Below, piece by piece: positions 9,141 through 58,936 of a stretch of DNA of 64,000 bases. Location of the stretch: the NCBI GenBank assembly GCA_041658285.1, contig JBBAAP010000002.1:44252-108251 (forward strand), given 5' to 3'. The notes below the pieces were generated by a model. It was not told the DNA's origin and made no database searches. It saw only the letters and a list, made by a program, of their open reading frames with translations. Within the stretch, counting starts at the first letter, position 1. Each line of letters starts with the position of its first letter. The DNA is from Candidatus Brocadiia bacterium. GTDB lineage: Bacteria; Planctomycetota; MHYJ01; JACQXL01. A program made the translations under genes and the position numbers.

Positions 9141-9145
9141 CAACT

Positions 9146-11345: not shown

Positions 11346-11447
11346 CCGCCTTGGCGGGGTTAATCTTTTATCATCTGAACAGAGCCTATTAGGAACAGTT
11401 CGACCAACGGGAGTTACTGTCCCTTATCCCGAGCGTAGTCTCGGGGT

Positions 11448-14470: not shown

Positions 14471-14473
14471 AAA

Positions 14474-14701
14474 TCACCTATCCTCTCCGAAAAAGTTATC
14501 CAGCCATTCCCAGCGCGAGGTATTGGCGCAGTCCATCGGTTCGCTTATTTTAGGCGTAACCGTCACCGGTCCAGCCTCGTTTTCCGGGAATAAGGCGTCA
14601 TAGCAATACCGGCACAGCCGGACCCGCCGACAGGCGAAGGATATGATATCCCATTCCCGGGGTAGCTCCTTACCGCATTCTTTACACATCTTTCTTTCCA
14701 T
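14474..14701 (-). CDS. Small zinc-ribbon protein (CxxC...CxxC)
   Basis: MCKECGKEL...CRYC. It is the first gene of the protease operon. Confidence 0.4.
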   Translation of the reverse strand: MERKMCKECGKELPREWDIISFACRRVRLCRYCYDALFPENEAGPVTVTPKISEPMDCANTSRWEWLDNFFGEDR

Positions 14702-29469: not shown

Positions 29470-29613
29470 ATTTTACTAAGTTTCAACCACGAATGTACAC
29501 GAATAAACACTAATATTATTTTTATTTTAACCGCGGATTATACTAATTTTACTGATTATTATTAATTTGTAATGTTACAAGTCTCTTTAAAGTCACTGTT
29601 ATATTCAATCTGA

Positions 29614-32549: not shown

Positions 32550-35500
32550 TTATTCCATCACGATGCCGATATCGCTAAAAATCTTCCTGAAAGTTTTATC
32601 AGCGTAATCCATTGAATTATTGTTTTTGACGTATTGTATAGATTGCTTGGAAATCTTATCCCATAAAAGATTATTCTTATAAAGCGATATCACCTTTCGG
32701 GCAAAATCATCGGCCTTATCGGTAATCATGGCCGTTTGGCCGTCCATCAAATTCAACCCCTCAGCCCCGATAGAAGTTGTGACCATAGGCAGGCCGAAAC
32801 TCATAGTCTGGATATTCTTGCCTTTTATGCCGGCGCCGTAACGAAGCGGCGAGACAAACACCCGGGCGTTCTCGAAATACGGCGCCACATCCTTGGCATA
32901 ACCAACCACCTTTACGCCCTTTTCGGGCGAATCCAAGGCCAGCACCTCCGGCGTCGGCTTACTGCCCACAATGGTCAATGTCACATCCGGTATGCCTGAT
33001 TTCACCAGCGGATAAACCTCCTTGATGAACCATTTGATGCCGTCGGCATTAGGCGGATGCTGGAACCCGCCCAAGAAGAATAATCCGTTTCTTTTGTTAA
33101 AACCGGCCTTGGAAAGGCTTATCTCCTGGATATAAGGGACAACCACTGTTTTCGCCTTGGGAAGCTCCTTGGCTACAATCTCTTTTTCCACCGGGCTCAG
33201 GGTCAGGGCAACGTCGCTCTTGGCTATCAGGTATAATTCCTTGGATTTATATTCTTTCGACCGCTTGAGCGCTTCCTTGTCGTTTTCGAGCAGGCCTTTC
33301 CGCTCCTCCCTGAGGAAATACAAGTCAACCAGGTCATACAAGACCTTGATGTTAGCCACGGATTTTATGGTATCAATATACGGCATCGCCACGTCCGGCC
33401 GGGTCAGGAAGGCAACATCTATATGCTTGCCGTAATTCTTGATGTATTTATTAAAATCATTAGGCCCGTAAACCAGTTCTATACCCATCTGCTCCAGTTC
33501 CGGTCCGTAAGGCTCGTAGCGGTAAAGGTTATGGGGCCAGAATATAATTTTAAAACCCATATTAAGGAATATCTTAAGGTACTCATACATCCTGACCGAG
33601 CCGGCATCCTGGTCCCAAGTGGGCACATTATTATCCATAAACAGCATTATCTTCTTATTGCGCGACCGGTCACGGGCTAGGAAGACGTTTTCGCCGTTCT
33701 TGAAATGCTCCTTTTCCAAAACTGTCTGCCACTTGCGGTAGAATTTTTGAGTATTAATGACCTGGTATTTTTTCATTCCCTGGGCGGTGTCGGTACCGGC
33801 GGTAACGCCTTCGAAATGGATTATTTCGGCTTTTGGCTGATACATCACCTTGTATCCTTTTTGCCTGACCCGGAACGCCAGGTCGGTATCCTCGCAATAG
33901 GCCGGGGCGTAGTATGTATCAAACAGGTCTTCGCCCTTGAGAACGCTTTTCCTGACCAGCAGGCAGGCGCCGGAACAATAATCCACCTCCTTGACATAGT
34001 TATATTCCCATTTCTTGGGGTCGTCGAGCCGGCCATAGTTCCAGGCAATGTTGATTGGGTCGTTCCAGATGATGCCGCCGGCCTCCTGGAGCCGGCCGTC
34101 GGGATAGACCAGCTTGGTCCCGACCAGGCCGATTTTATCATCCCTCTGGGCCAGGTCCGTCATCGCCTTAAGCCAACCTTTGGTTACCTTGGTATCGTTA
34201 TTCAAAAGGAGTATGTATTTGCCTTTGGACAGCTCCGCGCCCTTGTTGCAAGCACCGACGAATCCAAGATTAGTTTCGTTCCTAATGACCTTGATATTCT
34301 TTATCTTTGCCAACATTTGAGGCGTTTCGTCTTCCGATGCGTTATCTACGACAATCACCTCGTAAGGCGCGCCATCGGTATTTTCAACCAACGATTCCAG
34401 GCATTTATGGGTATATTCACACTTGTTCCAAACCGGGATGATGATAGAAACATCCGGTTTACTAACAGCCGGGAATTCTATGGCTTTCCATTCCCGGGAC
34501 TGGCCCGGTTCCGATTTGGGAAGTTCTTGAACAGGCGCAGTTTGCCGGACCGGCGGCGTCCAGACCTTGGATGTTTCATTCTTCCTCAACCATCTGAACG
34601 TAACCGCATTCCAGCAAAACCGCCAGGTTGCCTTGGCCATCCGCCGGCGCCGGCTGTCCAAGGGCAGGATAAAATTGCGAAACCTGTAATATACGGATAT
34701 AACCCGCCAGCCGTGCGAGTTATGGATTTCCTCGAGGTCATAGGCCATATGCCGGTTTTCCATCTGCAGGTTTGCGATATGGGTATTATTTTCATCTATC
34801 TCCTTTTGTAGTCTATTACCCCACTGCCCGCGCCTGACGCATTCAGCGTCCAATTCATCCACTTGTTTTTGCAGGCGCACGCCCCATTCACCTCGCTTAA
34901 CAATTTCATTATCCATATCCTTGATTTTAGCAGCATTATTATTTAGCTGTTTTTGAAGTGTCAGAATTTGCTCATCCTTATTAATGATTGTACCCTGCAA
35001 TTCTGACATTTTAAAATGACCGCTTGATAACTCGGCCTCTAACTTAACTATTTTTATGCGATTGACAGACAGATCTTTTTCTAATTCCACATTCCGTGCC
35101 TTCAACGCAGTAAACTCAACCCCCAGCTCCTTAAGCTGAACCTTATTATCGTTCAGGACAGCAACCATCTCCTCGAGATGTTTCTGGCGCTTATCAAGTT
35201 CAACCTCTAATTTAGAGATATGGTCCTTGATAAAGGTCTGGAGCAGGTTGATATTGGTGGTAACGGTGGTTTCCAGGGACTTGATGATACGTTCCTTATC
35301 GGAGATGGACTGATTAAGCCCGACAATAACCTGATTTTTCTGCCTGACCTCGGCATCCAAGCCCTGGCCCCACTTGCCCAGTTTTTCCGCCTCCTGCTGG
35401 AGCTCTGATATGCGCCGCCCCTGCCTGGTTAATTCCGCGTCCAGGCTTTTGCCCCAATCGCTCAGTTTTTTTATTTCTGCCTGGCGTTCGACCAATAAGC

Positions 35501-36689
35501 TATCACGTTCCTTATTGCCAGCATCTAATTCTTGACCCCATTTGCTAAGATTTTCTATTTCTTTCTGTAATTCGATGATTCTTTGGTTTCCTTGATTCAA
35601 CTCGGCATCTAATTGAATACTATGATTACTGAGCTTTTCTATTTCCGCTTGGCGTTCGACCAATAACTTATCCCGCTCTTTGCTGCCGGCATCTAATTCC
35701 TGTCCCCATTTGCCAAGCTTTTCTATTTCCACCTGTTGCGCTGCTAATAAGGTATCTTTTTCTTCGCCTTCTGATTCCAACGATTTTCCCCATTTACCAA
35801 TTTTTTGCACTTCATTTTGAAGCTCTACAATCCGTTTCTCGTATTGTTTTATCTGTTCATCCAGTGATTTACCCCATTTTGACAACTCTTCGATTTGGCT
35901 ATTTTGCGAAGAAATTAAATTATCCTTTTCCGCAAACAGTCTGAATGAAGTGTCCACAAGGTAGGAATTATATTTAATGTCAACCTTGCCGTTAGACGCA
36001 ACTGCAATGAAATAGAAAGGCTCTTTTCTCTTCACGCTCGCGTATTTAAGTTCCTTGCCTGAGCTTTTTAGGCTCAATTCCTGCCAGTCCCGATATGAAC
36101 CCTTTAAATCCCATATATTGGACGACGGAAATATCCTTTGCCCGAGAAATGAAGCGTTCTTGAAATACTTTTTCATCAAGCCGGAAAACTCGTTGATATC
36201 AAGCTCTTTTTTATGGAATGAATTTCGATAATTGCGTTTATTCGAATAAACTGGCTTATTTGGCGTAGAAACAATAAATAAACCATCATCCTTAAGCAGT
36301 CTTTTGACCTCTTTTAACAGCTTGGCCTGCTCTTTTATGTGCTCAAGGACCTCATAACATACTATGACATCGAATAAATTCTTACCTTTTAACGGAATGT
36401 CCCTGACATCGCCAATCTTGAATTTCAAGTTTTCCTGACGATACTTTTTTAAAGCGTGATTAATTGCGGCCTTATCAATATCAATGCCTATTACCGATTT
36501 AGCTGTTTGGGCCAAAAAAAACGACCCATACCCTTCGCCGCATCCTACATCTAGGACTTTTTTGTCTTTAACGAATTCCCCAGCGAACCCATAGCGATGC
36601 AGGTGCTCATAATGGGTATCCGCGGTCGGACCAACAGGAACGAACCGCTCCCCGGTCCATTCAAGATTTGTTGTTTTTTTTACTATCAT
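32550..36689 (-). CDS. Giant multidomain glycan-synthesis enzyme: class I SAM methyltransferase, ~350 aa coiled-coil with tandem KWG(K/Q)xLD repeats, a GT2 domain and a GT4 domain
   Basis: The MTase motif is VLDVGCGEGYGSF. The ~37 aa repeats read L(S/G)KWGxxLD. The GT2 domain is VSIIIPVWN...VVDNASED, and the GT4 C-terminus has the E-x7-E-type motifs. Confidence 0.75.
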   Translation of the reverse strand: MIVKKTTNLEWTGERFVPVGPTADTHYEHLHRYGFAGEFVKDKKVLDVGCGEGYGSFFLAQTAKSVIGIDIDKAAINHALKKYRQENLKFKIGDVRDIPLKGKNLFDVIVCYEVLEHIKEQAKLLKEVKRLLKDDGLFIVSTPNKPVYSNKRNYRNSFHKKELDINEFSGLMKKYFKNASFLGQRIFPSSNIWDLKGSYRDWQELSLKSSGKELKYASVKRKEPFYFIAVASNGKVDIKYNSYLVDTSFRLFAEKDNLISSQNSQIEELSKWGKSLDEQIKQYEKRIVELQNEVQKIGKWGKSLESEGEEKDTLLAAQQVEIEKLGKWGQELDAGSKERDKLLVERQAEIEKLSNHSIQLDAELNQGNQRIIELQKEIENLSKWGQELDAGNKERDSLLVERQAEIKKLSDWGKSLDAELTRQGRRISELQQEAEKLGKWGQGLDAEVRQKNQVIVGLNQSISDKERIIKSLETTVTTNINLLQTFIKDHISKLEVELDKRQKHLEEMVAVLNDNKVQLKELGVEFTALKARNVELEKDLSVNRIKIVKLEAELSSGHFKMSELQGTIINKDEQILTLQKQLNNNAAKIKDMDNEIVKRGEWGVRLQKQVDELDAECVRRGQWGNRLQKEIDENNTHIANLQMENRHMAYDLEEIHNSHGWRVISVYYRFRNFILPLDSRRRRMAKATWRFCWNAVTFRWLRKNETSKVWTPPVRQTAPVQELPKSEPGQSREWKAIEFPAVSKPDVSIIIPVWNKCEYTHKCLESLVENTDGAPYEVIVVDNASEDETPQMLAKIKNIKVIRNETNLGFVGACNKGAELSKGKYILLLNNDTKVTKGWLKAMTDLAQRDDKIGLVGTKLVYPDGRLQEAGGIIWNDPINIAWNYGRLDDPKKWEYNYVKEVDYCSGACLLVRKSVLKGEDLFDTYYAPAYCEDTDLAFRVRQKGYKVMYQPKAEIIHFEGVTAGTDTAQGMKKYQVINTQKFYRKWQTVLEKEHFKNGENVFLARDRSRNKKIMLFMDNNVPTWDQDAGSVRMYEYLKIFLNMGFKIIFWPHNLYRYEPYGPELEQMGIELVYGPNDFNKYIKNYGKHIDVAFLTRPDVAMPYIDTIKSVANIKVLYDLVDLYFLREERKGLLENDKEALKRSKEYKSKELYLIAKSDVALTLSPVEKEIVAKELPKAKTVVVPYIQEISLSKAGFNKRNGLFFLGGFQHPPNADGIKWFIKEVYPLVKSGIPDVTLTIVGSKPTPEVLALDSPEKGVKVVGYAKDVAPYFENARVFVSPLRYGAGIKGKNIQTMSFGLPMVTTSIGAEGLNLMDGQTAMITDKADDFARKVISLYKNNLLWDKISKQSIQYVKNNNSMDYADKTFRKIFSDIGIVME

Positions 36690-36703
36690 AACTAGATTAC
36701 GTT

Positions 36704-36934
36704 TTATTTAGTTTTAAAGTTAATATCGGCTGATTTCAAGCGCGGGTGTTTTTTATCCTTATCCGATACCAGAGGGTTCTGAACCGGCCAGGCGATGGCG
36801 ATATCCGGGTCGTTCCAAATAATTCCCCGGTCGTTCCCAAGCCAATCTTTGGTTGATTTTACACTCTTCATATAACAACAGGATAAGTAAACTATAAACC
36901 TGCCAATTGTCAATAAAACAGGACTACTATACAA
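36704..36934 (-). pseudogene. Orphan duplicate of the last ~25 codons of rfbC fused to unrelated upstream sequence; a remnant of the recombination that inserted the abiE cassette
   Basis: The 74 bp at 36762-36835 are identical to 38595-38668 inside rfbC. The encoded C-terminus GIIWNDPDIAIAWPVQNPLVSDKDKKHP matches RfbC. Confidence 0.7.
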
Positions 36935-37070
36935 ATCCGGTTATTTCCATCAAAGCCATTCTTAGCCCCGATTATTCATATCCACCCCGCTGGCGGGGCG
37001 GACCACATTAAAGTACTCGGGATTCCTCGGCCGTAAGTCTCTCGGTCACCCGTACGGGTGTCCTGCGAGG

Positions 37071-37745
37071 CTAACGGAAATTATTCACGCTAAACTCGTA
37101 AATAATCCGGGTTAATACCTTAAAATTGGCGGTTTTATAGTATCTGCGCTGGTCGGACTCCAGCAGTGAACCCAGCTTGACGGCGTAATCGTTCGGTTTT
37201 AGCGCGCTTATGACTTCTAATATCTGCCCGGCGGTTTCCCGGCTGGTTTGCGGCTTGACCCCTTTTTTCAGCAGGAACTCGATGTCAAAGGCATCACGGA
37301 TTTCCTTGCGGTCGAGAAACGCCTCTATTTTAGCCTGCATCATGTCGTCAAGCGATACGGCCCGGACCGGCACCTGGATGTCGGCATAACGGCTGTAGGC
37401 TATGGCCGATTCGGTCTTGATGTCTTTTTTCTCTTTGCGCACTTCTATTTTCAAACTGCGCGGAAAGTCCTTTGATTTGAGCTCCAGCAGAATGGTGTAG
37501 AATTTGTTCCGGCTGTCTTTCAGGGTGTACGCTCCGGACAAGCATTCTTTCAGGTTTTTGTATAACCCGGCCCGGTCAAGGTCATTGGTAATCCAGAAAT
37601 CAAGGTCTACGGAAAATCGGTTTAACCCGAAACACAGCCTGAGCATGGTCCCGCCGCCAAAGGTCAGGTTGCCCAACAACCGGGCGCTGTTGAGTTTGTC
37701 CAGAACCTCCATCTCAAACCGTTCCTGCTTGATCAAGTCTTGCAT
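37071..37745 (-). CDS. abiEii: AbiEii/AbiGii-family nucleotidyltransferase toxin (type IV TA)
   Basis: FGGGTMLRLCFGLNRFSVDLDFW matches the AbiEii GGTAL...R.S.DIDF nucleotidyltransferase motif. It is 224 aa and sits 4 nt downstream of the partner gene. Confidence 0.75.
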   Translation of the reverse strand: MQDLIKQERFEMEVLDKLNSARLLGNLTFGGGTMLRLCFGLNRFSVDLDFWITNDLDRAGLYKNLKECLSGAYTLKDSRNKFYTILLELKSKDFPRSLKIEVRKEKKDIKTESAIAYSRYADIQVPVRAVSLDDMMQAKIEAFLDRKEIRDAFDIEFLLKKGVKPQTSRETAGQILEVISALKPNDYAVKLGSLLESDQRRYYKTANFKVLTRIIYEFSVNNFR

Positions 37746-37748
37746 ATT

Positions 37749-38366
37749 TTATCCCTTGCGCACCATCAATAACTTATTAATCGCCGATTGCGTCCGGAGC
37801 GGGAATCTCCCGGCAATCCGCCTTAGTTCTTTCCTGTCCAGCCGGCCTAACGACAGCGAATTTAAATCCGGACGATATTTGCCGATGGAATAGAGATAGA
37901 GCGTATCTGCCAGAGCCTTTTCCGGCGTAGCGATAAAAATGCCGTCTTTTTTGACAAACCCGAAGTAAAGCCGTTTTTTCAGTTTGTAGTAGTTAAAGGC
38001 AACGCCTTTGATGTCATATTTGATGGAACGCTTAAGCGCGGCGCTTTCCGTAAAATTGCGCTGGACCTGGGTGGTCATGTCATAAATCCCCAGGGCGGTC
38101 ATAAATGAAATATAAGACGGCACCTGGAGAAAATTGGCGGCCTTTAAAAGCTCTTCAGACGATACATCAGCCCATTTCTGGGAAAAAGCGTAGACATTAT
38201 TTTTTAGCCGGGTGAATATGCCGTTTTTTACGTACCGGCTGCAGAGAACCCTGATTGATGCCGGCTTTATGCCCAGGACTCTTTGGAGTTCGACCGGGGT
38301 AAAATACATTTTTGACTGCAATGACGACAATTTGGGATAATTCATATTAACCCGCTTCTTCCGCAT
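37749..38366 (-). CDS. abiEi: AbiEi-family antitoxin / transcriptional regulator
   Basis: It is about 200 aa and sits immediately upstream of abiEii. It has an N-terminal winged-helix-like region. Confidence 0.55.
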   Translation of the reverse strand: MRKKRVNMNYPKLSSLQSKMYFTPVELQRVLGIKPASIRVLCSRYVKNGIFTRLKNNVYAFSQKWADVSSEELLKAANFLQVPSYISFMTALGIYDMTTQVQRNFTESAALKRSIKYDIKGVAFNYYKLKKRLYFGFVKKDGIFIATPEKALADTLYLYSIGKYRPDLNSLSLGRLDRKELRRIAGRFPLRTQSAINKLLMVRKG

Positions 38367-38554
38367 CTCATACTATGTATGAAAAAACAGCCATTCGTAA
38401 TCCCGGACCCAGGTGCCGGCATAGCGGCCATAACCATATTTATGGCAATTATGGTAAACATACTTAATTAACGTTTTTGTTAACTATATATTCTTAGTAA
38501 AATATGTCAATAAAAACTGAATTATGCGGAGAACCTTAATTTTACCACGAATTG

Positions 38555-39094
38555 TCACGAATGTTGCTTAAATGAAGGATGCTTCTTGTCCTTCTCCGAT
38601 ACCAGAGGGTTCTGAACCGGCCAGGCGATGGCGATATCCGGGTCGTTCCAAATAATTCCCCGGTCGTTGGCGGGCGAGTATTCTTCCGTACACTTATATA
38701 TCACGTCTGCCTGGTCGCTCAGCACCACGAACCCGTGCGCAAACCCGGCCGGCACATAGAGCATCATCTTGTTCAGCTCGGACAATTCGGCGCTGACCCA
38801 TTTGCCGTAGGTCGCGGACTTCCTGCGGATATCCACGGCCACGTCCCAGATCGCCCCCTTGACGCACCTGACCAGCTTGCCCTGCGCCTTGGGCGATTTC
38901 TGGTAATGCAAACCCCTTAATACGTTCCTGATTGAGTAAGAATGATTGTCCTGCAGGAAGTGCTCGGGTATGCCCATCGCGGTAAACTCGCTGTGCTTGT
39001 AGGTCTCGATGAAGAACCCGCGGGAGTCGGCAAAGACCTTGGGCTCGATGAGCACGACCTCGGGGATGGATAGTTTGGTAAAATTAAAACTCAT
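38555..39094 (-). CDS. rfbC: dTDP-4-dehydrorhamnose 3,5-epimerase
   Basis: It has the cupin fold motifs RGLHYQ, GKLVRCVKGAIWDVAVDIR and GFAHGFVVLSD. It is 179 aa. Confidence 0.9.
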   Translation of the reverse strand: MSFNFTKLSIPEVVLIEPKVFADSRGFFIETYKHSEFTAMGIPEHFLQDNHSYSIRNVLRGLHYQKSPKAQGKLVRCVKGAIWDVAVDIRRKSATYGKWVSAELSELNKMMLYVPAGFAHGFVVLSDQADVIYKCTEEYSPANDRGIIWNDPDIAIAWPVQNPLVSEKDKKHPSFKQHS

Positions 39095-39245
39095 AGTTAC
39101 CTTTCACCACAAAGGACACTAAGGACACAAAGAATACTTTTACATTTTCCCCATTCGCTAAGTTTACCCTGAGTATTATCGAAGGGCTCAGTGAGACTAC
39201 GCTCTCTATGATATATAGTCTATCGTCTTTTGTCTTTTTCCGAAA

Positions 39246-39443
39246 TCACATCTTCATCAGCCGGTCGACCATTTTCCTGAACGGTTTAGCCCGGTGGTTG
39301 ATAAATTCGTTATATTGGGTAACAAATTCCAGGTAGCTATCAACCCCGGTTTTACGGTTTTTGAAGGGATTATGCCGGTTTTTTGCTACCGCCCGCATGT
39401 CACGGGAAATAGCCGTTTGCTCAATCGTTTTAAGGGAAATCAT
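39246..39443 (-). CDS. Small basic protein (65 aa), downstream partner of the nucleotidyltransferase
   Basis: It overlaps the upstream gene by 4 nt (ATGA). I recognise no motifs. Confidence 0.3.
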   Translation of the reverse strand: MISLKTIEQTAISRDMRAVAKNRHNPFKNRKTGVDSYLEFVTQYNEFINHRAKPFRKMVDRLMKM

Positions 39444-40009
39444 AGCCCGTAACTCCGGTATAGTTTATTATATACATTGGCCATTTCAAACATGCTAAAA
39501 TACTTCTTTAACAACTTCCAGTCAAGCTTATTTCTATGGAGCGACATCAGCGCTTCGATATCGGGCAGGTCCTGCTTTTGGCGGACGGGGTCGTTATTGA
39601 TGGCCTGAAGTTTCAGGCCGATGATGTCTTCGGGCTTCAATACCCTGATTTTAAGCGCTCCGTTGAATATCTCTTTCTTACCGGCCCGTTTGAGCATCCC
39701 CAGGCTGACCGGGCGAAAGGCATACAAAAAGTCCACCTCGCCAAAAACATTCAAGTCTGAAACATATTGCCCCACGTTCTCGGTCTGGAAACGGCATTGA
39801 TAGCCGAGTTTCTTCATAATGACGTCAATTTGGTCGATATCGTCCCGGTCGGCCAGGAAATCTATATCCACGGTAGACCTCCCGGCGCCCCACAGCCCCA
39901 TGGCAAAACCGCCTATCAGCGCGTATTTGACACCTGACCGATCAAAGGCGACCAGCAGTTTCTGAAGCACTAATTTGAAGTCCATATATTTAGCCCTATT
40001 TTTAACCAC
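39440..40009 (-). CDS. Nucleotidyltransferase-fold protein sharing the AbiEii-like GG..A..L....R.S.DIDF motif
   Basis: IGGFAMGLWGAGRSTVDIDFLADRDD. The length is 189 aa. Confidence 0.55.
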   Translation of the reverse strand: MVKNRAKYMDFKLVLQKLLVAFDRSGVKYALIGGFAMGLWGAGRSTVDIDFLADRDDIDQIDVIMKKLGYQCRFQTENVGQYVSDLNVFGEVDFLYAFRPVSLGMLKRAGKKEIFNGALKIRVLKPEDIIGLKLQAINNDPVRQKQDLPDIEALMSLHRNKLDWKLLKKYFSMFEMANVYNKLYRSYGL

Positions 40010-40138
40010 GAAAGCCCGAAAAACTAAAAATTACTTTTATTCAACAGGGACTGAACGAGACCTTACTTTTTACAAGTCTCTTTATAGTCTATTTAAGTCC
40101 ATGTTAACACTATTCAGTGGCTTCAGTGCTCTCAGCGG

Positions 40139-41020
40139 TTATATTCCTTTGTTAAGAAATTTCTCCAGATATTGGCCGTAGGAGCTCTTTTTCAACGGTT
40201 CTATCAGTTTCTTAAACTGTTCTTTATCTATATAGCCCAATTCATAAGCCAGTTCTTCGACGCAGGCAATCTTCTGTCCCTGCCTCTTTTCGATAATAGC
40301 AATGAACTCGCTGGCCTCCAAGAGGTTCTCGCAGGAGCCGGTGTCCAGCCAGGCCGTTCCGCGGCCCAATAATTCCACCCTCAAAGCATTCTTCTTGAGG
40401 TATTCGCGGTTGACGTCGGTTATTTCCAGCTCGCCCCGGGCCGAGGGCTTGATGGACTTGGCTACCTTGACCACATTGTTATCGTAATAATACAGGCCGG
40501 TGACGGCGTAGTTTGATTTAGGATGCGCGGGCTTTTCCTCTATTGACAGCGCCTTGCCGGACTTGTCAAAATCGACCACGCCGTAGGCGACCGGGTTCTG
40601 GACGTAATAGCCGAATACCGTGGCGCCACGCTGAGCTTTGACATCGGCCACCACCCGCTTCATCAGGTTGGTCAGCCCGTGCCCGTAAAAGATGTTGTCG
40701 CCCAGCACCAGGCAGACGTCGTCCTTGCCGATGAACTCTTCACCGATGAGAAACGATTCGGCCAGACCCTTGGGCTGGAGCTGTTCTTTGTAGCTGAGCT
40801 TCAGGCCCAGGTGCGCGCCGTCGCCGAAGATAGCCTTGAACCGGGGCAGGTCCTGGGGTGTGGAGATTATCAGGATTTCCCGGATGCCGGATATCATCAG
40901 GATAGACAAGGGGTAGTATATCATCGGCTTGTCGTAAACGGGCAATAACTGCTTGCAGACGGCCTGAGTGATGGGATAGAGCCGGGTGCCGCTACCGCCG
41001 GCTAAGATGATACCTTTCAT
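40139..41020 (-). CDS. rfbA: Glucose-1-phosphate thymidylyltransferase
   Basis: [18 protein letters not shown]...[17 protein letters not shown] is canonical RmlA. It is 293 aa. Confidence 0.9.
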
Positions 41021-41095
41021 TTTATGCTCCTAACTTTTAGTACACAGATTAACCTGATTTAGCTGATAGTTTATTTCCCAGTTAAATCAACCCTG

Positions 41096-41371
41096 CTAAA
41101 TCCTTTGTGAAACTATTTTATAAACTACGGAGCGGTGCAAAATAGCCAAAACCCATACCTCGTTTTTGTTTACCTTATAAACAACCCGGTAGTCCCCGAC
41201 GCGCAGTTTCCAGTATCCACTCAAGGGCTTGCGCAGGGGGTGCCCGTATTTTTCTGGTTCAATGGTCAGCCGCGTTTCTATGGCGGTTGATATCCTGACA
41301 CGGGCGGTCTTGTCAATCGCCGGGATGTCGCTTTCCTTAACCTTATGGTGGTATAAAATTGTATAGGCCAT
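41096..41371 (-). CDS. RelE/ParE-family type II toxin
   Basis: It is 91 aa and has the RelE/StbE-like core GYWKLRVGDYRVVYKVNKNEVWVLAILHR. Confidence 0.75.
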   Translation of the reverse strand: MAYTILYHHKVKESDIPAIDKTARVRISTAIETRLTIEPEKYGHPLRKPLSGYWKLRVGDYRVVYKVNKNEVWVLAILHRSVVYKIVSQRI

Positions 41372-41378
41372 ATAGCCG

Positions 41379-41609
41379 TTATTTGGGAAATACCTGCCGG
41401 TGGGTCAGGGCTTTCTTGCGGTTAAATGTCCGCTCGCGCTCTTCGGCAACGCCGGTCAAGACTACGTCCTCGAAGTATTCAAGGCTCATACTGACCAGGT
41501 CCCGGACTTTATAAGAAAGCGAGACTCCGTCGTCATGGGCTAATTTTCTTATGGCCTGGTAAATGGGACGGTCTAAGACTACATTTATTCTGGGGTTCTT
41601 GGCTGACAT
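41379..41609 (-). CDS. Ribbon-helix-helix (CopG/ParD-like) antitoxin
   Basis: MSAKNPRINVVLDRPIYQAIRKLA is the RHH beta-strand and helix. The start is at the ATG at 41609, preceded by the Shine-Dalgarno sequence AAGGAG. The ORF-table N-terminal extension is unlikely to be real. Confidence 0.6.
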   Translation of the reverse strand: MSAKNPRINVVLDRPIYQAIRKLAHDDGVSLSYKVRDLVSMSLEYFEDVVLTGVAEERERTFNRKKALTHRQVFPK

Positions 41610-41748
41610 ATTAATGACTCCTTTCAACTGTAGTGTTACACTTCTGTAACACCTTGTCAAGAAATATTCAGTCATAGATTAGCATATATTTAACCACAGA
41701 TTAACACGAATAATAACGACTCCCGAAATAAATCTGTGTAATCTGTGG

Positions 41749-43314
41749 CTACGCGTATTTTCCTCGAAGTTCACGGTAGAGCGTTTTGCCGCTGGCCGTC
41801 CGGGGAATATCAACAGACTTGATAAAAACGACGCTCTTGGGCTTTTTATAGGCCGCCATCTTGTCGCGGCAGTAATCGATTATCTCTCTCTCGGTAGAGG
41901 TCTGACCTTCTTTGAGAACTATAAACGCCTTGACCGATTCACCCCATTTGTCGTCGGGCACGCCGATGACGGCGGATTCGAAAACCTTGGGATTGAGGGC
42001 CAGCGCCTCTTCGACCTCGGAGGGATAGACGTGCTCGCCACCGGTGATGATCATATTGTCCTTGCGGTCGACCAGGTAGTAATAGCCGTCGGCATCCTTT
42101 TTGGCCATATCGCCGGCGCTGAACCATTGGCCTTTGAAAACGGACTTGGTCTTGTCGGGCAGTTTGTAGTAGCCGTCAAAGAGCATCGGGCCGCGGGAAT
42201 AGAGCTCGCCCACCTGCCCGGCCGGCAGTTCCTTACCGGCGGAGTCGAGTATCTTGATGCGGTCGGTGCCGATGGATTCCTTGCCGATAGAGCCGGCCTT
42301 GCTGAGCTGTTCTTCAGGCCTGAGGATGGTGACAATACCGGCCTCGGTGGAGCCGTAGCCTTCGTAGAGCCGGGCGTTGGTGAAATATTCCATCACCCGC
42401 TTCTTGATTTCGCCCCGGGCCGGCGCCGAGGAGCACAACAGCTTGTTTATGGAGGACACGTCGTATTTAGCCCGGACATCGGCCGGCAGGCCGAGTATCA
42501 GGTTGTAATGGGTGGGGATGAGCGAGATAAAGGTGGCCTTTTCCCGGGCGACGATACCCAGGATTTCTTCGGGGTTGAAGTTCCGGGCCGGATGGACGTA
42601 GATACCGCCGCCGATATAGGTGAAGGTGAACGAGAAATAGGTGGTGTTAACGTGGCAGAGCGGCATAACGTTGAGGCAGATATCGTCCGGCCGGAAACTG
42701 AAATCACCGGCGTTTATGAGGTAGAATGCAATATATGATTCGTGCGACCGGAGCACGCCCTTGGGCTTGCCGGTGGTGCCCGAGGTATAGAGCAGAACCC
42801 AGGTGTCTTTGGGGTCGACCCGAATGCCGGGGTCCTTGTCCGGCGCGCTGTTCAGCCAGGATTCGTAATCAGATAAATTAGAGATTTGAGATTTGGAATG
42901 CGGGATATGGGATTTTATCTCAATGTAATGTTTTATTTGCGGCAGCTGCGGCTTTATTTGTTCAATCAGCGGAATGAATTCATCGTGGACGAAGAAGGCC
43001 TTGCTGTCGGCGTCGGCGGCGATGTAGGCGACGTCGGCCGGGCTAAGCCGGAAGTTTATGGGGTTGATGACGATACCGGTCCGGGCGCAGGCCAGATAGA
43101 GCTCGATGATTTCCAGGCAGTTTTCCAGCAGGCAGGAGACCTTGTCGCCCTTCTTGAGCCCCAACCCGAGCATGGCGTTGGATAATTTATCAATACGGGT
43201 GTTAAGCTGACTGAAGGTCAACAGCCGGGACTTGTCCTTAAGCGCCATCCGGTCCGCATACTTGGCGGCGTTGACCCGGAGCGTCTCGGCTAAGTTAAGC
43301 CATAATGCTGACAT
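41749..43314 (-). CDS. AMP-dependent synthetase/ligase (acyl-CoA or acyl-carrier ligase)
   Basis: It has the AMP-binding motif LYTSGTTGKPKGV, plus the GYGSTE and GEL motifs. Confidence 0.8.
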   Translation of the reverse strand: MSALWLNLAETLRVNAAKYADRMALKDKSRLLTFSQLNTRIDKLSNAMLGLGLKKGDKVSCLLENCLEIIELYLACARTGIVINPINFRLSPADVAYIAADADSKAFFVHDEFIPLIEQIKPQLPQIKHYIEIKSHIPHSKSQISNLSDYESWLNSAPDKDPGIRVDPKDTWVLLYTSGTTGKPKGVLRSHESYIAFYLINAGDFSFRPDDICLNVMPLCHVNTTYFSFTFTYIGGGIYVHPARNFNPEEILGIVAREKATFISLIPTHYNLILGLPADVRAKYDVSSINKLLCSSAPARGEIKKRVMEYFTNARLYEGYGSTEAGIVTILRPEEQLSKAGSIGKESIGTDRIKILDSAGKELPAGQVGELYSRGPMLFDGYYKLPDKTKSVFKGQWFSAGDMAKKDADGYYYLVDRKDNMIITGGEHVYPSEVEEALALNPKVFESAVIGVPDDKWGESVKAFIVLKEGQTSTEREIIDYCRDKMAAYKKPKSVVFIKSVDIPRTASGKTLYRELRGKYA

Positions 43315-51934: not shown

Positions 51935-54900
51935 ATGCATATAGAGTATAGACCGTACAAAATTGCAATCCTATTCTTTACATTGTATTACATATTCACG
52001 CCTGCCATTTCAGCCGAGCCTGCCGTCAACGCGCCGCTGGTCGAGGTCATCTACACCTGGAACCAACCCAAAAACCCATTTGACGATATAATTTACCGGC
52101 GCCTGTCCAGAACGCTGGATAAAGAAGAAGCCGTTTATTATTACGCCATGTATGCCCGGTGCAAGGACGAAATACTGATTACCGGCGAGGACGATGTCCC
52201 TTTGCAGGAATGGCTGCCCGACCGGGTAATAGTCAACGGCAAAGCGCTTCAGTCAAACGATTACACCGGATACATCGGTAAAAGCCGGATTATCCTTTAT
52301 CAGCAATCGCCTTACGGACTGCTGGAACTGGGAGAGATGGACAAAAACGGGGTTTATGCTGAATCAATCGAATTCGTCAATACCACCGCGTCCCAGATAG
52401 GCCAAGAATCTCCGCCCAGCCTGTGGTATATCGGCGGTTCCATCCTGGGCGCGGCCAGCATTCTCGACTACGTCAAGAATGACAAGGAACCAACCAACCA
52501 CGCGCCTACAGCCTTATTTAATGTAATCCCTGAAACCGGTTCAACCAACACGGTGTTTTGGTTCGATGCCGGCACGTCATCCGATATCGACGAGCCAGTA
52601 CAAAACTTAATGGTGCGTTGGGACTGGGAAAACGACGGCGTCTGGGACACATCTTTCTCTATTGCCAAAACGATTACCCGGACATTCACCGCCGGCGCAC
52701 ATACGATAGCCATGCAGATGCGCGACAGCGCCGGCGCGTTTGTAACCGCGACCAAGACTATCACGGTCATAGCGCCGGGCGGACCGCTGGCCGCAACGCC
52801 TCAGCCGATATTCCATACCAACTTGCAACGAACCGGTCTGACCGCGATGGCCGGACCGGTTACAGACACCGTCAAGCGGCAATACGCCACCGGCGGCGTC
52901 ATCCAGTCATCGCCGGTGATTGCCGCTGACAACACCATTTATGCCGGCTCATTCGACGGCAAGGTCTATGCGCTCAACCCCAACGGCACGCTCAAATGGG
53001 CATCTCAGATTCTGGGACAGATATATTCCACTCCGGCCATCGGCTCAGACGGCACTCTATACATCGGCGCCGGCACGGCGCTATACGCCCTGAACAATAC
53101 CACCGGCGCGGTGAACTGGTCTTATAACACCGGCAACACAGTGCGTTCATCACCGGCCATCGGCGCGGACGGCACCATATATTTCGGCTCGGGCAACGGC
53201 AATATCTACGCCGTCAACTACGACGGTTCGTTCAAATGGCTATATCCGACCGGTGGCGCGGTTGATTCAGCTCCGGCTATTGCCGCGGACGGCACGCTCT
53301 ATATCGGGTCCAACGATAATTATTTATACGCCCTGGATACAAACCCTCTGTCATTGAGATGGAGATACCAAGCCGGCGGCGCGATTGTCGGAGTTCCGGC
53401 TGTCGGTGCGGACGGAACCGTTTATGCCGGCGCAACCAACGGAATTATCTATGCCATCAATCCCAACGGCACGCTCAAATGGACCGCCGCTACTGCCGGG
53501 CCGGTATATTCATCACCGGCCGTAAACGCCACCACGCTTCATGTCGGTTCTGACGATTTCAGTTTATATTCCATTGCCCTGGCTACCGGCGGCATCAACT
53601 GGTCTTTTCCAACCACGGCAACGATACGCTCTTCTCCGGCGATAGATACTACCGGCAATATCTATTTCGGCTCGGATGACGGCAGGGTTTATTGCCTCAA
53701 TTCAGCCGGGACTGTGGTCTGGAGCCGCGATATCGGCTCGGCGGTGCGTTCATCGCCGGCCATAAACAACAGCAATGTCGGCGCATCACCGGCGGTGGTT
53801 TATATCGGAGCCGATAACGGCAGCCTCTATACCATCGGCTCAGGCCCGGCTGACCCGGCTAATATCGTCCTGTCCAAAAAGGCCAATAAACAATACATCA
53901 CCATCGGGGAAATCATTACATATAATATTACCGTCAGCAATTTCACCTCCACCACCGATACATCTAATAATAATATCGTCATCGATACCATTCCGGCCGG
54001 GTTCAGGTATATCCCGGGCTCAAGCGTGATTGATGGGGTCAACTTGGCCGACCCGGTCATCACCGGCACGGCGCTGACATTCCCGGATTTAGACGCGATA
54101 GCGCCCGGCCAGACCAAGACGCTGTCGTATCAACTAATAGCCGGCAGCGGCCTGGCCAAAGGCCGATATGTCAACAGCGCCTATTGCGACTATTTTGACG
54201 TAATCTGGAAAACCTCGAACACGGCCAGCGAAGAAGTGATGGTCATTGACGACCCTCTTTTCGACCTGGGCACGATAATGGGCCGGGTATTCATAGATAC
54301 CAACGCCAACGGCGTATTTGACCAAGGCGAAAAGGGCGTGGCATCCGCAACAATAATAATGGAGAATGGCGTATTAGCAATAACTGATAAAGAGGGTATG
54401 TATCATATTCCGGCGGTCAAACCCGGCACACACCATTTAAAAATAGGCAGTTATGCCGAAGATTATTCGGTCGGGTTATCTCAAATAGTTCGGGTTACCG
54501 AAGGCCTGCTCCTAAAGGTTAATTTTGCAATCAACCCTAAATACTCAGACAATATATATAAAAATGGGTACGGCGGCGTTATGCTAGGCAGCGGCGAGAT
54601 AGGCTATTCATCTGTCAAAGGCAATACCGACCTGGCCAATCGTGATAAGCGTTTACAGAAAAGACTCTATACTGACGGCAGGCTGGCGTTTTATACAAAT
54701 TTTGTCATGCATCCCGAAGCCCACGTTATTGTTTCCTATGATACCGATAGAATCTCAAATAAAAATACTGATTTATTCAAATATACAGACCCGGACAAAT
54801 ATTACCCAACTTATGGCGATAATTCCAGGGTTTCTTATGAAGGCGCTAATACGCAGGGACCACTATATTTATTGGCGGAAATGGGCGACGGAAACACTCA

Positions 54901-57391
54901 CAAACTTGGTATAATAGTCGGCAACTATCAGACTAATATTAACAAAACTGAATTAATCAACTATAACCGCGCGCTGTATGGAGCAAATGTATATTTGGAT
55001 GTCCCGGTGCCAAAAGGATTTGACAGATTTGTGCTATTCCCCAATAATATTTCGCTTTTTACCAGCCAGTCGCGTCAGGTGCCGGCCGTGAATGAATTCC
55101 AATCAACCGGCGGCTCGTTCTACTACCTCAAGAACCAAAGCATAGTCACCGGTTCTGAAAAGGTTACCATAGAAACACGGGATAAGCTGTCAAACCTTAC
55201 ATTATCATCTGTCACCAAGGCGCGGGATATTGACTACGAGATAGATTATGGTAACGGCCGGATTATCTTCTTCCAACCGGTTGGAATGGTTCAGGAATCC
55301 AGCACCATAATATCCAGCAATATCCTTAACGGTAACCCGGTCTATATTAAAGTGGCTTACGAATACGAAACAGACGCACTTGATTATTCCAAAGGCGTTT
55401 ACGGCGGACGGATTGCCACGCCTAATATCGGGTTAACCTATATTCAGTCCCGAAATAATCGGGACGGAGTTTATCCCGCCTTCAGCGGGACTGCGGCTTC
55501 GCAAACTGATACGAATGATTATACGATCGGCGGAGCTGATGTGAACCTCAGTTTCCCGATTAGCGGAACCGGTTCCATTGACATCAAAGCCGAATACGCC
55601 CAGTCCGAGTCAACCGGAATACCGGACTACTTTTCGCTGGACGGCGGTTCCGGTTTCAGCCCGATCAGCACGACCAAGACCGACGGCAACGCCTATCTCT
55701 TAAAGACCAGGGCCGACATCACCAAGGATATCCAGACCAGCCTGGTTTACCAACGCACCGGTGAAGGATTCGAATCCACCGCTACTTCAGCCAACCAAGG
55801 CACACAGAAATACGGCATGAATACGACCATCAAAACCAGCGACAGGTTAAAATTCATGGTCGGTTATGACGCACAGGAAACGCTGGAACCCAATCCGGCC
55901 ACTATTGCCGGCACGCTCATAGGCGCGCAGAAAAACCAGACCGCTTTCCTGCAGGCAAATTGGGCGCTGGAGCCGGGGAAACTCAACCTAACCGGCGAAT
56001 ACCGGTATCAGGATGTAGAAATTCCGTCTACTGCCCTGTCTGATAACAACTCAGGGACAGATATCCTGGCCGCCCGGCTGGATTACCAATACACCAAACA
56101 AACCCGACTCTTTGTCGCCCAACAGTTTGCAATTCAGGATACCCCCACTAACCAATATTCCAACACCCAGACAACCTTGGGCGGCTCGACCATATTCTCG
56201 GATAAATCACAGCTATCGGTCCAGGGCTCGGTGGCCACAGACGCTTATTCGGTCCTGAGCGGTTTCTCGTATCCGGTCAGCTCCAGAACCAATATGTATA
56301 CCAATTACGGATTAGGCGCCTCTGATACCGAAGGCCAGACGATGACCTCGGCCATCGGCGGCCGAAGCCAGGTCACAAATAAAACATCCGTTTACGCACA
56401 GGAAGAATACAAGACCTCGGACAAGGAACAGATGGTTTCCAACAACCAAAAGGTGGGCGAGGAAACACAGCTAACATCAGAGTGGACCGTAAGGAACTCA
56501 TTTGAGACCGGCCTGGTCAATTACTTCGACGAAACACAGACCACAAGACAGGTCGTGTCAGTTAATGCACAATATAGCCACAAACCCGCCCGAACGACTG
56601 TTCAGTCGGGCGGGGACACAAAGGACACAAAGAATACGGAAGATCTAAAATCAGGCTTAACGACATTAAGCACCAAGTTAGAATTCCGGGCCGACAACGG
56701 TATTCAAAACAAGAAGCAATACCTGACCGCCAATAACCTCAAATATCAGTTGACCGAAGACCTATCCGGAATGTTGAGGTTGAACTGGGCTCGGACAGAC
56801 AACACCACTACCGATAAGGTCGAAAGCCTGTTCCGTGAATACGGCATCGGCACGGCGCTCCGGCCGGTCAAATGGGACAAATGGCTCCTTATTGCCAAGT
56901 ACACCTATCTGGAAGACATAAGGAACCAATCAAACAGCCAGATAAAAGCCAACATCTACGCCCTGGAAACGGCCTATGATATTTTACCCCCATTGCAAGT
57001 GGTTGAAAAATACGCGCACCGCCGGATGTCTGAGGAAATCGGCTATATCCCCGAGACCCACAGTAATACCGACTTATGGATAAACCGCATTAACTACACG
57101 TTTGGCGCTACAGCGCCATGGCGCTCTGCGAACACAAACCACCTGAAAAGCTTTATAGTCGGCGGCGAGTATCGTATCCTCAGAACCGAGGCAAAGAATT
57201 CACTGACAGACCAACTGACCGGAGGCACGACGGACAAAAAGACCGGCTATCTGGCGGAAATAGGATACAAGTTCGATAAGACCATGCATTTCGGCATCGG
57301 CTACAACTTCACCGACTTCACCGATAACCTGGAACATACCTATGACTATTCGGTGCGCGGATTCTTTATCCGGATGAATATTGCATATTAG
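51935..57391 (+). CDS. 1818 aa surface protein: signal peptide, about 10 PQQ-like beta-propeller repeats, a DUF11 conserved-repeat domain, an SdrD-B/Cna-B-like domain, and ~1000 aa of predicted outer-membrane beta-barrel region
   Basis: The repeats are TxYALNxNGTLKW(S/T)... The DUF11-like region is NIVLSKKANKQYITIGEIITYNITVSN. The Cna-B-like region is GRVFIDTNANGVFDQGE. The C-terminal half has alternating hydrophobic residues and ends in an aromatic residue (Y). Confidence 0.6.
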   Translation: MHIEYRPYKIAILFFTLYYIFTPAISAEPAVNAPLVEVIYTWNQPKNPFDDIIYRRLSRTLDKEEAVYYYAMYARCKDEILITGEDDVPLQEWLPDRVIVNGKALQSNDYTGYIGKSRIILYQQSPYGLLELGEMDKNGVYAESIEFVNTTASQIGQESPPSLWYIGGSILGAASILDYVKNDKEPTNHAPTALFNVIPETGSTNTVFWFDAGTSSDIDEPVQNLMVRWDWENDGVWDTSFSIAKTITRTFTAGAHTIAMQMRDSAGAFVTATKTITVIAPGGPLAATPQPIFHTNLQRTGLTAMAGPVTDTVKRQYATGGVIQSSPVIAADNTIYAGSFDGKVYALNPNGTLKWASQILGQIYSTPAIGSDGTLYIGAGTALYALNNTTGAVNWSYNTGNTVRSSPAIGADGTIYFGSGNGNIYAVNYDGSFKWLYPTGGAVDSAPAIAADGTLYIGSNDNYLYALDTNPLSLRWRYQAGGAIVGVPAVGADGTVYAGATNGIIYAINPNGTLKWTAATAGPVYSSPAVNATTLHVGSDDFSLYSIALATGGINWSFPTTATIRSSPAIDTTGNIYFGSDDGRVYCLNSAGTVVWSRDIGSAVRSSPAINNSNVGASPAVVYIGADNGSLYTIGSGPADPANIVLSKKANKQYITIGEIITYNITVSNFTSTTDTSNNNIVIDTIPAGFRYIPGSSVIDGVNLADPVITGTALTFPDLDAIAPGQTKTLSYQLIAGSGLAKGRYVNSAYCDYFDVIWKTSNTASEEVMVIDDPLFDLGTIMGRVFIDTNANGVFDQGEKGVASATIIMENGVLAITDKEGMYHIPAVKPGTHHLKIGSYAEDYSVGLSQIVRVTEGLLLKVNFAINPKYSDNIYKNGYGGVMLGSGEIGYSSVKGNTDLANRDKRLQKRLYTDGRLAFYTNFVMHPEAHVIVSYDTDRISNKNTDLFKYTDPDKYYPTYGDNSRVSYEGANTQGPLYLLAEMGDGNTHKLGIIVGNYQTNINKTELINYNRALYGANVYLDVPVPKGFDRFVLFPNNISLFTSQSRQVPAVNEFQSTGGSFYYLKNQSIVTGSEKVTIETRDKLSNLTLSSVTKARDIDYEIDYGNGRIIFFQPVGMVQESSTIISSNILNGNPVYIKVAYEYETDALDYSKGVYGGRIATPNIGLTYIQSRNNRDGVYPAFSGTAASQTDTNDYTIGGADVNLSFPISGTGSIDIKAEYAQSESTGIPDYFSLDGGSGFSPISTTKTDGNAYLLKTRADITKDIQTSLVYQRTGEGFESTATSANQGTQKYGMNTTIKTSDRLKFMVGYDAQETLEPNPATIAGTLIGAQKNQTAFLQANWALEPGKLNLTGEYRYQDVEIPSTALSDNNSGTDILAARLDYQYTKQTRLFVAQQFAIQDTPTNQYSNTQTTLGGSTIFSDKSQLSVQGSVATDAYSVLSGFSYPVSSRTNMYTNYGLGASDTEGQTMTSAIGGRSQVTNKTSVYAQEEYKTSDKEQMVSNNQKVGEETQLTSEWTVRNSFETGLVNYFDETQTTRQVVSVNAQYSHKPARTTVQSGGDTKDTKNTEDLKSGLTTLSTKLEFRADNGIQNKKQYLTANNLKYQLTEDLSGMLRLNWARTDNTTTDKVESLFREYGIGTALRPVKWDKWLLIAKYTYLEDIRNQSNSQIKANIYALETAYDILPPLQVVEKYAHRRMSEEIGYIPETHSNTDLWINRINYTFGATAPWRSANTNHLKSFIVGGEYRILRTEAKNSLTDQLTGGTTDKKTGYLAEIGYKFDKTMHFGIGYNFTDFTDNLEHTYDYSVRGFFIRMNIAY

Positions 57392-58582: not shown

Positions 58583-58936
58583 ACCTACACTACTACTACC
58601 CCCTGCCTACACCTCTACCACCCCTGGCCTACACCTCTACTACCTCTGGCCTGCACCTCTACTACCTCCGGCCTGCACCTCTACTACCTCCGGCCTACAC
58701 CTCTACTACCTCCAGCCTACACCTCTACTACCTCCAGCCTGCACCTCTACTACCTCCAGCCTACACCTCTACTACCCCCGGCCTACACCTCTACTACCTC
58801 CGGCCTTCACCTCTACTACCTCCGGCCTACACCTCTACTACCTCTGGCCTACACCTCTACTACCCCCGACCTACATCTATACTACCCCTGACTTACACCC
58901 ATATTACCTCCGGCTTACAGTCCTACCACTATCGGC
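58583..58936. repeat. Degenerate tandem array of about 16 units of a 22 bp pyrimidine-rich repeat (consensus CCTACACCTCTACTACCTCCGG)
   Basis: Direct reading shows near-identical central units and degenerate flanks, with no spacers. The six-frame ORFs here (58526..58891, 58546..58980) are translation artefacts of the repeat. Confidence 0.9.

Follow-up and report, generated by a model that had tools for sequence, protein, structure and literature searches.

The 64,000-nt stretch of Candidatus Brocadiia DNA that we analysed (assembly GCA_041658285.1, contig JBBAAP010000002.1; hereafter the window) contains an rml operon in which a two-gene AbiE toxin-antitoxin (TA) cassette separates rmlC, the gene for dTDP-4-dehydrorhamnose 3,5-epimerase, from an orphaned second copy of the rmlC 3′ end. 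The cassette is bracketed by a perfect direct repeat (36762-36835 and 38595-38668, 74 of 74 nt, copies 1833 bp apart) that sits within a longer match of 92 nt at 95% identity (36744-36835 and 38577-38668), and by chance a sequence of 64 kb should contain a repeat like this only ~1e-35 times. An earlier note, made from the sequence alone, had described the 74-bp identity and named abiEi and abiEii as the only genes between the copies, and re-alignment bore out the identity, the coordinates and the gene content. Comparison with related genomes indicates that the locus is one recent recombination episode within an old and ongoing turnover of TA modules, and that the rml operon is a lineage-wide site of TA accretion, a recombination hotspot, in a Brocadiia-related planctomycete lineage.

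Anatomy of the rml locus

All relevant genes of the locus lie on the minus strand. In gene direction, a small open reading frame (ORF) and a ParE-type toxin gene are followed by rmlA, a DUF6036/AbiEii-like nucleotidyltransferase gene with a 65-aa ORF, rmlC, abiEi, abiEii, a 235-nt spacer, the orphan rmlC 3′ fragment (36835-36704), 14 nt, a 1379-aa gene and further sugar-nucleotide genes. The features that define the cassette and its borders are as follows.

38555-39094, minus strand: intact rmlC, 179 aa (PF00908, 252 bits, full model)
38595-38668, minus strand: repeat copy R1, 74 bp, within intact rmlC, encoding NDRGIIWNDPDIAIAWPVQNPLVS
38555-38594, minus strand: tail B, the atypical truncated end of intact rmlC (..EKDKKHPSFKQHS, stop), homologous to the orphan tail but diverged (13 of 18 nt)
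38545-38562, minus strand: ATTCGTGACAATTCGTGG, copy of a 10-nt tandem motif overlapping the rmlC stop codon
37749-38366, minus strand: abiEi-like antitoxin/regulator, 205-aa ORF
37071-37745, minus strand: abiEii nucleotidyltransferase toxin, 224 aa, starting 3 nt past the abiEi stop
36836-37070, minus strand: unique spacer, 235 nt, from the abiEii stop to the orphan
36762-36835, minus strand: repeat copy R2, 74 bp, 5′ boundary (gene direction) at 36835/36836
36704-36934, minus strand: orphan ORF, whose 44 C-terminal residues match the RmlC C-terminus (PF00908, 30 bits)
36704-36761, minus strand: tail A, the family-typical rmlC end (..DKDKKHPRLKSADINFKTK, stop), then 14 nt to the glycosyltransferase ATG
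32550-36689, minus strand: giant methyltransferase/coiled-coil/GT2/GT1 protein, 1379 aa (Pfam), next gene after the orphan

The RmlC protein of the window is 100% identical to one from a Candidatus Brocadiia metagenome-assembled genome (MAG). At its 5′ boundary the orphan breaks sharply into unrelated sequence, the 235-nt spacer, which contains GC-rich hairpins (fold z-score -2.3), the ATG that opens the orphan ORF and, in a promoter scan, a weak promoter-like site at 36953-36926. Neither the rest of the window nor any of the loci retrieved for comparison contains a match to the spacer, and an Rfam scan of 36000-42000 at E<=1 returned no match. The orphan ORF stands before the giant gene, as had been noted, although the gap to the ATG measures 14 nt and not the 15 bp first given. 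Within the giant gene itself, 35461-35820 (minus strand) holds internal repeats of 84 and 168 nt that correspond to reiterated coiled-coil units (..KWGKSLD..ELQ..).

The two rmlC tails differ

The two copies part company at the end of the perfect tract. Over the next 18 nt toward the gene 3′ end there are 5 mismatches, mostly at third codon positions, against none in the preceding 74 nt (Fisher p=1.7e-4), and a run of 74 consecutive matches has a probability of at most 2e-5 at the divergence seen between the two rmlC copies of the related genome L004, described below. A perfect tract followed by clustered mismatches argues for a recombination tract and not for an aged duplication. The codons after the mismatched stretch are still homologous (SFK in one copy, RLK in the other), and beyond them the sequences diverge; together with the third-position mismatches, this shows that the tail of the intact gene came from another, diverged rmlC.

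RmlC homologs (n=10) end in ..HP.L(K/R).AD.NF.., and the orphan closes with the family-typical HPRLKSADINFKTK and a stop codon. The intact gene stops early, at HPSFKQHS, its stop codon lying inside ATTCGTGACAATTCGTGG, and tail B continues into the intergenic 10-nt tandem motif. Judged by these ends, the orphan is the original rmlC end, still carrying its native 14-nt junction to the next gene, and the tail of the intact gene is foreign but rmlC-derived. The earlier proposal that the junction to the downstream gene was preserved thus holds. Its proposal of a homology-mediated insertion holds in part: rmlC homology was evidently involved, but the event was no simple target duplication, since the tails differ at 5 of 18 nt. 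For the same reason we reject a pure target-site duplication.

The gene pair belongs to the AbiE family

The AbiEii assignment is secure by sequence comparison: the protein matches PF08843 with 70 bits (cut-off 22.5) and the PADLOC model PDLC02330 over its full length (E=3.6e-92), and its translation contains the nucleotidyltransferase motif FGGGTMLRL..VDLDFW. AbiEi is matched by 20 PADLOC AbiEi models in total, best by PDLC02241 (E=6.7e-28, residues 14-185), and these matches, with the location of the gene 3 nt ahead of the toxin gene, as expected for AbiE, are the basis of the AbiEi call. Pfam AbiEi_4 (18.4 bits, cut-off 25) and NCBIfam TAA_AbiEi (19 bits, far under its cut-off of 150) fell short. 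The profile search that the earlier note had suggested therefore succeeds for PF08843, and for both partners in PADLOC, but stays below cut-off for Pfam AbiEi_4. The true abiEi start is probably the ATG at 38345 (198 aa), as in L004 and in L003, an independent contig introduced below. Upstream of abiEi lies a strong promoter-like TTGACA-16-TATAGT (38510-38483, minus strand, 11 of 12 consensus matches), within a segment conserved between the window and L004.

AbiE is a type IV TA and abortive-infection system whose models come from Streptococcus agalactiae and Lactococcus. The window pair resembles them in its two adjacent genes with the antitoxin/regulator first, its PF08843 toxin with a GG..DxD motif and its own promoter-like site, and differs in being only distantly similar to solved or curated members; the best Protein Data Bank sequence matches reach E ~2e-4. 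On sequence grounds we assign the two genes to the AbiE family, with toxicity, autoregulation and phage defence as predicted functions. No AbiEii relative was found in viral contigs, and plasmid relatives are at most 31% identical.

Relatives hold other TA modules at the same sites

In a collection of 5.8 billion proteins, the two closest relatives of the window RmlC are 84% and 81% identical, and the loci that encode them (L004, from a Planctomycetota MAG, and L005) are both syntenic with the window. The window itself has two further TA-like modules, one on each side of rmlA.

39246-40009, minus strand: second TA-like module, between rmlA and rmlC (Pfam), with a DUF6036/AbiEii-like nucleotidyltransferase (39440-40009, 189 aa) and a 65-aa ORF (39246-39443) overlapping its end
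40139-41020, minus strand: rmlA, glucose-1-phosphate thymidylyltransferase (PF00483, 238 bits)
41096-41675, minus strand: third TA module, directly upstream of rmlA, with a ParE/RelE-type toxin (41096-41371; PF05016 in the existing annotation, TIGR02385 27 bits) and a small upstream ORF (41379-41675)

L004 begins with an MNT-HepT module, rmlA and an rmlC with a tail-B-like end, which is followed by a module of a 70-aa ORF and DUF6036, the AbiEi-AbiEii pair, an MNT, MNT, HepT module, a homolog of the window's 39246-40009 module, an orphan rmlC fragment and a DUF433-PIN module. The L004 orphan has a canonical tail and is, over 66 nt, 86% identical to L004's own rmlC. The homolog of the 39246-40009 module (83% nucleotide identity) thus stands elsewhere in L004, as the last cassette before the orphan. 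L005 has an antitoxin-ParE module, rmlA, an rmlC with a canonical tail, a HEPN-MNT module and an orphan rmlC fragment with tail B. Upstream of rmlA the ParE module is syntenic between the window and L005, and MNT-HepT takes this position in L004. From genome to genome, different TA modules occupy the site behind rmlC and those flanking rmlA. The tail-B junction (..LK codons, then an ATTCGTG-type motif) is shared by the window and the L005 orphan, and probably by the intact gene of L004. An expectation of the earlier note fails here: it had foreseen relatives in which rmlC (there called rfbC) runs directly into the glycosyltransferase gene, and both L004 and L005 have TA cassettes and an orphan rmlC fragment. 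L004 carries the same AbiE cassette and other TA cassettes occupy the same spot in the relatives, so a single insertion into a pristine junction of rmlC and the glycosyltransferase gene is not supported.

Beyond these two genomes no orphan rmlC fragment was encountered: a set of 80 rmlC loci (~1.1 Mb) taken from other phyla contains none, although two of the loci have full paralogs. A scan of a genome collection with RmlC returned the L004 contig as the only close relative, the 90% cluster of RmlC has a single member, and the protein database held no empty-site allele. A full protein search with the 1379-aa glycosyltransferase gave no ortholog above 45% identity, and a scan of JGI metagenomes with its N-terminus gave only 27-32% matches; with no such ortholog, an empty site, in which rmlC is directly followed by the glycosyltransferase gene, could not be recovered for comparison.

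Two side observations concern repeats in related or comparable loci. The MNT-HepT module upstream of rmlA in L004 is flanked by 71-nt direct repeats (7686-7756 and 8644-8714) of 28-nt TTAGTGGCAGT-type units. In L072, a Nitrospirae MAG, sugar genes, rmlC among them, lie in a 6.8-kb block between the copies of a perfect 127-nt direct repeat (5918-6044 and 12748-12874) that begins at the 3′ end of a gene of 393 aa, an instance of gene-end reiteration round a non-TA insert.

The cassette is younger than its flanks and older than the perfect repeat

The window and L004 share the segment 38529-37117, which comprises the promoter, abiEi and abiEii minus its last 14 codons, and over the AbiE cassette the two are 90-92% identical at the nucleotide level. 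Synonymous divergence (dS) between them is 0.37-0.38 for the cassette and 0.52-0.89 for eight flanking core genes. By this direct measure the AbiE cassette is younger than its flanks, which indicates that it was exchanged between the window and L004 lineages after they split, and not recently. The 74-bp perfect tract is much younger than this exchange and dates the last recombination of the repeat, not the origin of the arrangement. The claim of a datable insertion consequently lapses: the tract dates only that last recombination, and the cassette differs from its L004 counterpart by a dS of ~0.37.

Within the cassette, L004 has a 105-nt insert with tandem motifs (13031-13134) between abiEi and abiEii, where the window has a gap of only 3 nt. 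The two genomes also have unrelated sequence over the final 14 codons of abiEii (window 37071-37116, L004 13770-13812), which shows that gene 3′ ends are remodelled within the cassette too.

Gene-end repeats surround other AbiE pairs

We examined the surroundings of AbiEii homologs in other genomes, with identities of 60-68%. Together with the window's lineage, entered as a single case, they make up nine independent contexts of this AbiE subfamily. In five of the nine, fragments of a neighbouring gene's 3′ end are reiterated round the cassettes. Besides the window's lineage, these are L086, where the final 150-170 nt of an NtrC-like gene recur ~4 kb downstream and bracket an AAA_14 ATPase, the AbiE pair and an MNT-HepT module; L087/L088, where three copies of a coding tail of 62-95 nt separate the AbiE pair and a DUF234 ATPase, with giant glycosyltransferases adjoining; L096 (Omnitrophota), where the final 35+ nt of a 449-aa gene recur twice and separate AbiE, DUF2442 and a second AbiE; and L097, where a solitary AbiE pair lies between copies of ~145 nt from the 3′ end of a gene of 3016 aa. 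The orphans decay, with a frameshift in L086 and an in-frame stop in L097. The target gene differs in every context and the orientation of the cassette varies, being co-oriented in the window and convergent in L096 and L097. No gene-end repeat was seen in L092, L094, L098 and L099, and no integrase in the flanks examined of the five repeat-bearing contexts.

Three of the nine contexts are glycan loci: the rml operon here, L087, where the AbiE pair lies between glycosyltransferases of 1381 and 1395 aa (1001-12663), and L098, where it lies between an initiating sugar transferase and Wza/Wzz/flippase genes (4881-14666). Against a base rate of 2-5% this gives p ~0.001-0.008 in a small, non-random sample. 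The co-location with glycan genes to which the earlier note drew attention does recur, but it is not a rule. Polysaccharide loci are known recombination hotspots, and this may be enough to explain the co-location.

No mobilising enzyme accompanies the cassette

The cassette and its vicinity contain no integrase, transposase or inverted repeats. A single recombinase gene is present in the window, 28 kb away among the housekeeping genes ruvC, spoU, tmk and holB:

7994-8947, minus strand: XerC/XerD-type tyrosine recombinase (326 bits to TIGR02224)

Several classes of mobile element were considered and rejected. A transposon or insertion sequence is at odds with the lack of a transposase ORF and of terminal inverted repeats, and an insertion sequence also with a duplication of 74-92 nt with non-identical tails in place of a short target duplication of fixed length. 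An integron is rejected for want of IntI, the sole tyrosine recombinase scoring 127 bits against an IntI model cut-off of 265; attC-like inverted repeats were not seen at the cassette ends and no Rfam match was obtained, in a search that used no dedicated attC model. Set beside elements of the e14 kind, which insert in icd, the cassette has direct repeats at both ends and a target 3′ end replaced by an element-borne copy, and no integrase in or beside it.

Likeness to known systems

A close anatomical parallel is that of e14 and phage 21 in icd of E. coli K-12, with its icdC orphan. There, too, the insert lies in the 3′ end of a housekeeping gene and brings a slightly different tail, the original tail is orphaned at the far end, and direct repeats permit an excision that rebuilds a chimeric gene (PMC13626634). 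Whereas e14 is a 15-kb element with its own integrase, the window insert measures 1.8 kb, lacks a recombinase and is part of a TA array that relatives share in varying form. This array also resembles TA-rich chromosomal integrons, in that its small TA cassettes bear promoters, differ in content among relatives and plausibly stabilise it, but its boundaries are host-gene fragments and 10-nt direct tandem motifs.

Accretion at attachment sites offers a second comparison. Streptococcal integrative and conjugative elements give rise to cis-mobilisable elements, integrase-less remnants that accrete in tandem at att sites. In L087 and L096, small cargo units likewise lie between reiterated attachment-type copies, as tycheposon cargo is flanked by partial tRNAs (bioRxiv 10.1101/2020.12.28.424599); unlike these systems, the AbiE contexts have no cognate integrase identified, their targets are the 3′ ends of differing protein genes, and orientation varies. 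In Microcystis aeruginosa, a ParE/ParD module beside MaOC1 lies between identical 152-bp direct repeats (PMC7935541). It shares with the window a two-gene TA module just downstream of a host gene and identical direct repeats of ~100 nt, but the Microcystis repeats are intergenic and contain inverted repeats, whereas the window repeat is coding sequence of the neighbouring gene. In the literature on a described mechanism we found only this precedent and the e14/icd analogy, and a limited literature check found no description of gene-end reiteration round TA cassettes.

Origin of the arrangement

The anatomy is of the e14/icd kind but the enzyme is missing, and we therefore favour, at about an even chance of being right, acquisition of the AbiE cassette from a relative through recombination anchored in rmlC homology. 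An AbiE pair with its own promoter would enter on DNA of a related genome in which the cassette already stood behind an rmlC carrying the truncated tail B, so that the incoming DNA would consist of tail B, spacer and AbiE cassette. One incoming end would cross over homologously in the rmlC 3′ region, giving the intact gene its donor-derived tail, and the other would join illegitimately at codon N146 of the resident rmlC; alternatively, a circle would enter by a single crossover. Either route would leave the resident 74-bp segment and the original tail as an orphan still joined to the glycosyltransferase gene. Direct repeats promote RecA-mediated loss of the DNA between them, but TA addiction would poison cells that lose the cassette, and the cassette would survive between its repeats. 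Judging from general TA behaviour, such survival of addictive cassettes would explain why these sites hold almost entirely TA modules. We infer both the recombination route and the stabilising role of addiction; what speaks for the account of the insertion includes the orphan's family-typical tail with its native 14-nt junction to the next gene, and the order shared by L004 and L005, rmlC, TA cassettes, orphan, with differing cassette sets.

Several points weigh against this account. Neither a donor genome nor an empty site was found, so that we infer the direction and date of the event. The tail types are reversed in L005, with the canonical tail on the intact gene and tail B on the orphan, which a single simple insertion does not predict and which calls for extra rearrangements. 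In the cases described, homology-facilitated illegitimate recombination usually deletes recipient DNA and leaves no duplication, and the circular intermediate is hypothetical. The perfect tract could have come from gene conversion between two older copies, and the addiction argument builds on general TA properties and on a predicted toxicity of AbiE.

The conversion just mentioned is the core of the strongest alternative, which we nonetheless regard as unlikely: a single duplication of the rmlC 3′ end, with the origin of tail B, would predate the split of the window, L004 and L005 lineages, cassettes have turned over since, and the copies here were homogenised over 74 bp with no new insertion. 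The orphan is indeed present in all three genomes, the likeness of the tail-B junctions fits a single origin, and copies within a genome (100%, 86% and ~82-84%) are more alike than copies between genomes (~75-80%). Yet the 5′ ends of the orphans differ among the three genomes (codon N146, ~I150 and ~I157), copies of only 90 nt with 80-86% identity should be poor substrates for conversion, and a cassette dS about half that of the flanks shows real horizontal exchange.

Two further explanations are improbable to a similar degree. In the first, site-specific integration of the e14/phage-21-in-icd type, an attP with a replacement rmlC 3′ end would have been used by an integrase that was later lost, or that acts in trans on a cis-mobilisable remnant, and the arrays would have grown by tandem accretion. 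The identical core repeats, element-borne replacement tail and displaced orphan tail match icd/icdC round e14 (PMC13626634), and the L087 and L096 arrays, with fragments between cassettes, resemble tandem accretion. No integrase, however, was found in or near the window cassette, where the sole recombinase is Xer-like and 28 kb off, or in the examined flanks of the five repeat-bearing contexts; the target gene differs per context, the orientation to the repeat is not fixed, and no viral relatives were found. The second invokes a dedicated, undescribed insertion mechanism that would duplicate target sequence at gene 3′ ends over long and variable stretches (35-170 nt), perhaps through staggered breaks with fill-in or replication template switching, and that TA cassettes would exploit. 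It would suit the five of nine contexts, spread over several phyla, with their differing target genes and repeats of ~35, 62-95, 74-92, 121-145 and 150-170 nt, but the intact tail in the window is no copy of the orphan tail, which excludes a pure target duplication here, and no conserved sequence was seen at cassette ends.

Tandem duplication followed by deletions is conceivable and would account for the cassette order in the window and L004, but leaves the reversed tails of L005 unexplained, and the spacer upstream of the L004 orphan has no homology to that upstream of the window rmlC. Least probable by a wide margin is an assembly artefact, in which two variants from the population would have been fused at a short repeat in this metagenome-assembled contig (ENA k141_428435, k=141), because the final k-mer exceeds the 74-bp repeats, so that both junction paths are spanned, the same protein set occurs on contigs up to 433 kb, and both junctions were recovered in another sample. 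There, the 1819-bp Logan contig L003 (SRR8449812) reproduces the cassette without a difference and ends 30 nt into the repeat on either side, as a k=31 assembler does at an exact repeat, which means that both cassette/repeat junctions were seen independently.

Tandem motifs and other features of the window

The tandem motif at the rmlC stop codon belongs to a genome-wide intergenic 10-nt family, ATTCGTGnnn, in 2-4 units, with 11 matches in the window against 0.54 expected:

7007-7034, 7851-7868, 10997-11024, 11180-11226, 29487-29514, 38545-38562, 41694-41711: ATTCGTGnnn motif sites

The family also marks cassette boundaries in L004 (families D3 and D5). We rejected it as a cassette-specific recombination site, as it is a general intergenic motif that occurs, for example, between two glycan genes with no TA nearby (29487-29514). 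Further 9-nt tandem families stand at gene boundaries (CACTGAAAG, CACAAAGGA and GGACACAAA), and the contigs of relatives break at such tandem motifs. Two longer arrays look non-coding: 16106-16546, with periods of 22, 44 and 66 nt (AATCCCGGTTATCAACACC.. units), and 58584-58919, with 15 copies of the 22-nt CCTACACCTCTACTACCTCCGG, overlapping a 144-aa ORF. An unannotated 1818-aa ORF (51935-57391, plus strand) adjoins a gene for a 289-aa protein of three HTH_17 (excisionase-like) domains (57568-58437, minus strand).

Implications

AbiE itself is known, as are gene-end duplications as scars of integrative elements. What is unusual here is a recombinase-free, minimal TA cassette with such a scar, in an operon where the TA modules between the genes change from one relative to the next, and the recurrence of the same scar at homologous AbiE pairs in unrelated genomes. 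The pattern occurs in no fewer than three unrelated lineages (that of the window, in the Planctomycetota; an Omnitrophota MAG; and three contigs of metagenomic or MAG origin). From it we tentatively suggest, with more doubt than conviction, that AbiE pairs of this subfamily, like the MNT/HepT, DUF6036 and ParE modules found in their company, are integrase-less, self-stabilising cassettes. They would lie at host gene 3′ ends between reiterated 35-170-nt copies. The repeats would either provide homology that moves with the cassette and lets it pop in and out among relatives, or be the product of an undescribed insertion mechanism that duplicates its target, and toxin addiction would keep the cassettes in place. 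If the recurrence is true, it would offer a testable route by which chromosomal TA modules move and persist with neither transposases nor integrases, and would help to explain the pile-up of TA modules in hotspots such as surface-polysaccharide loci.

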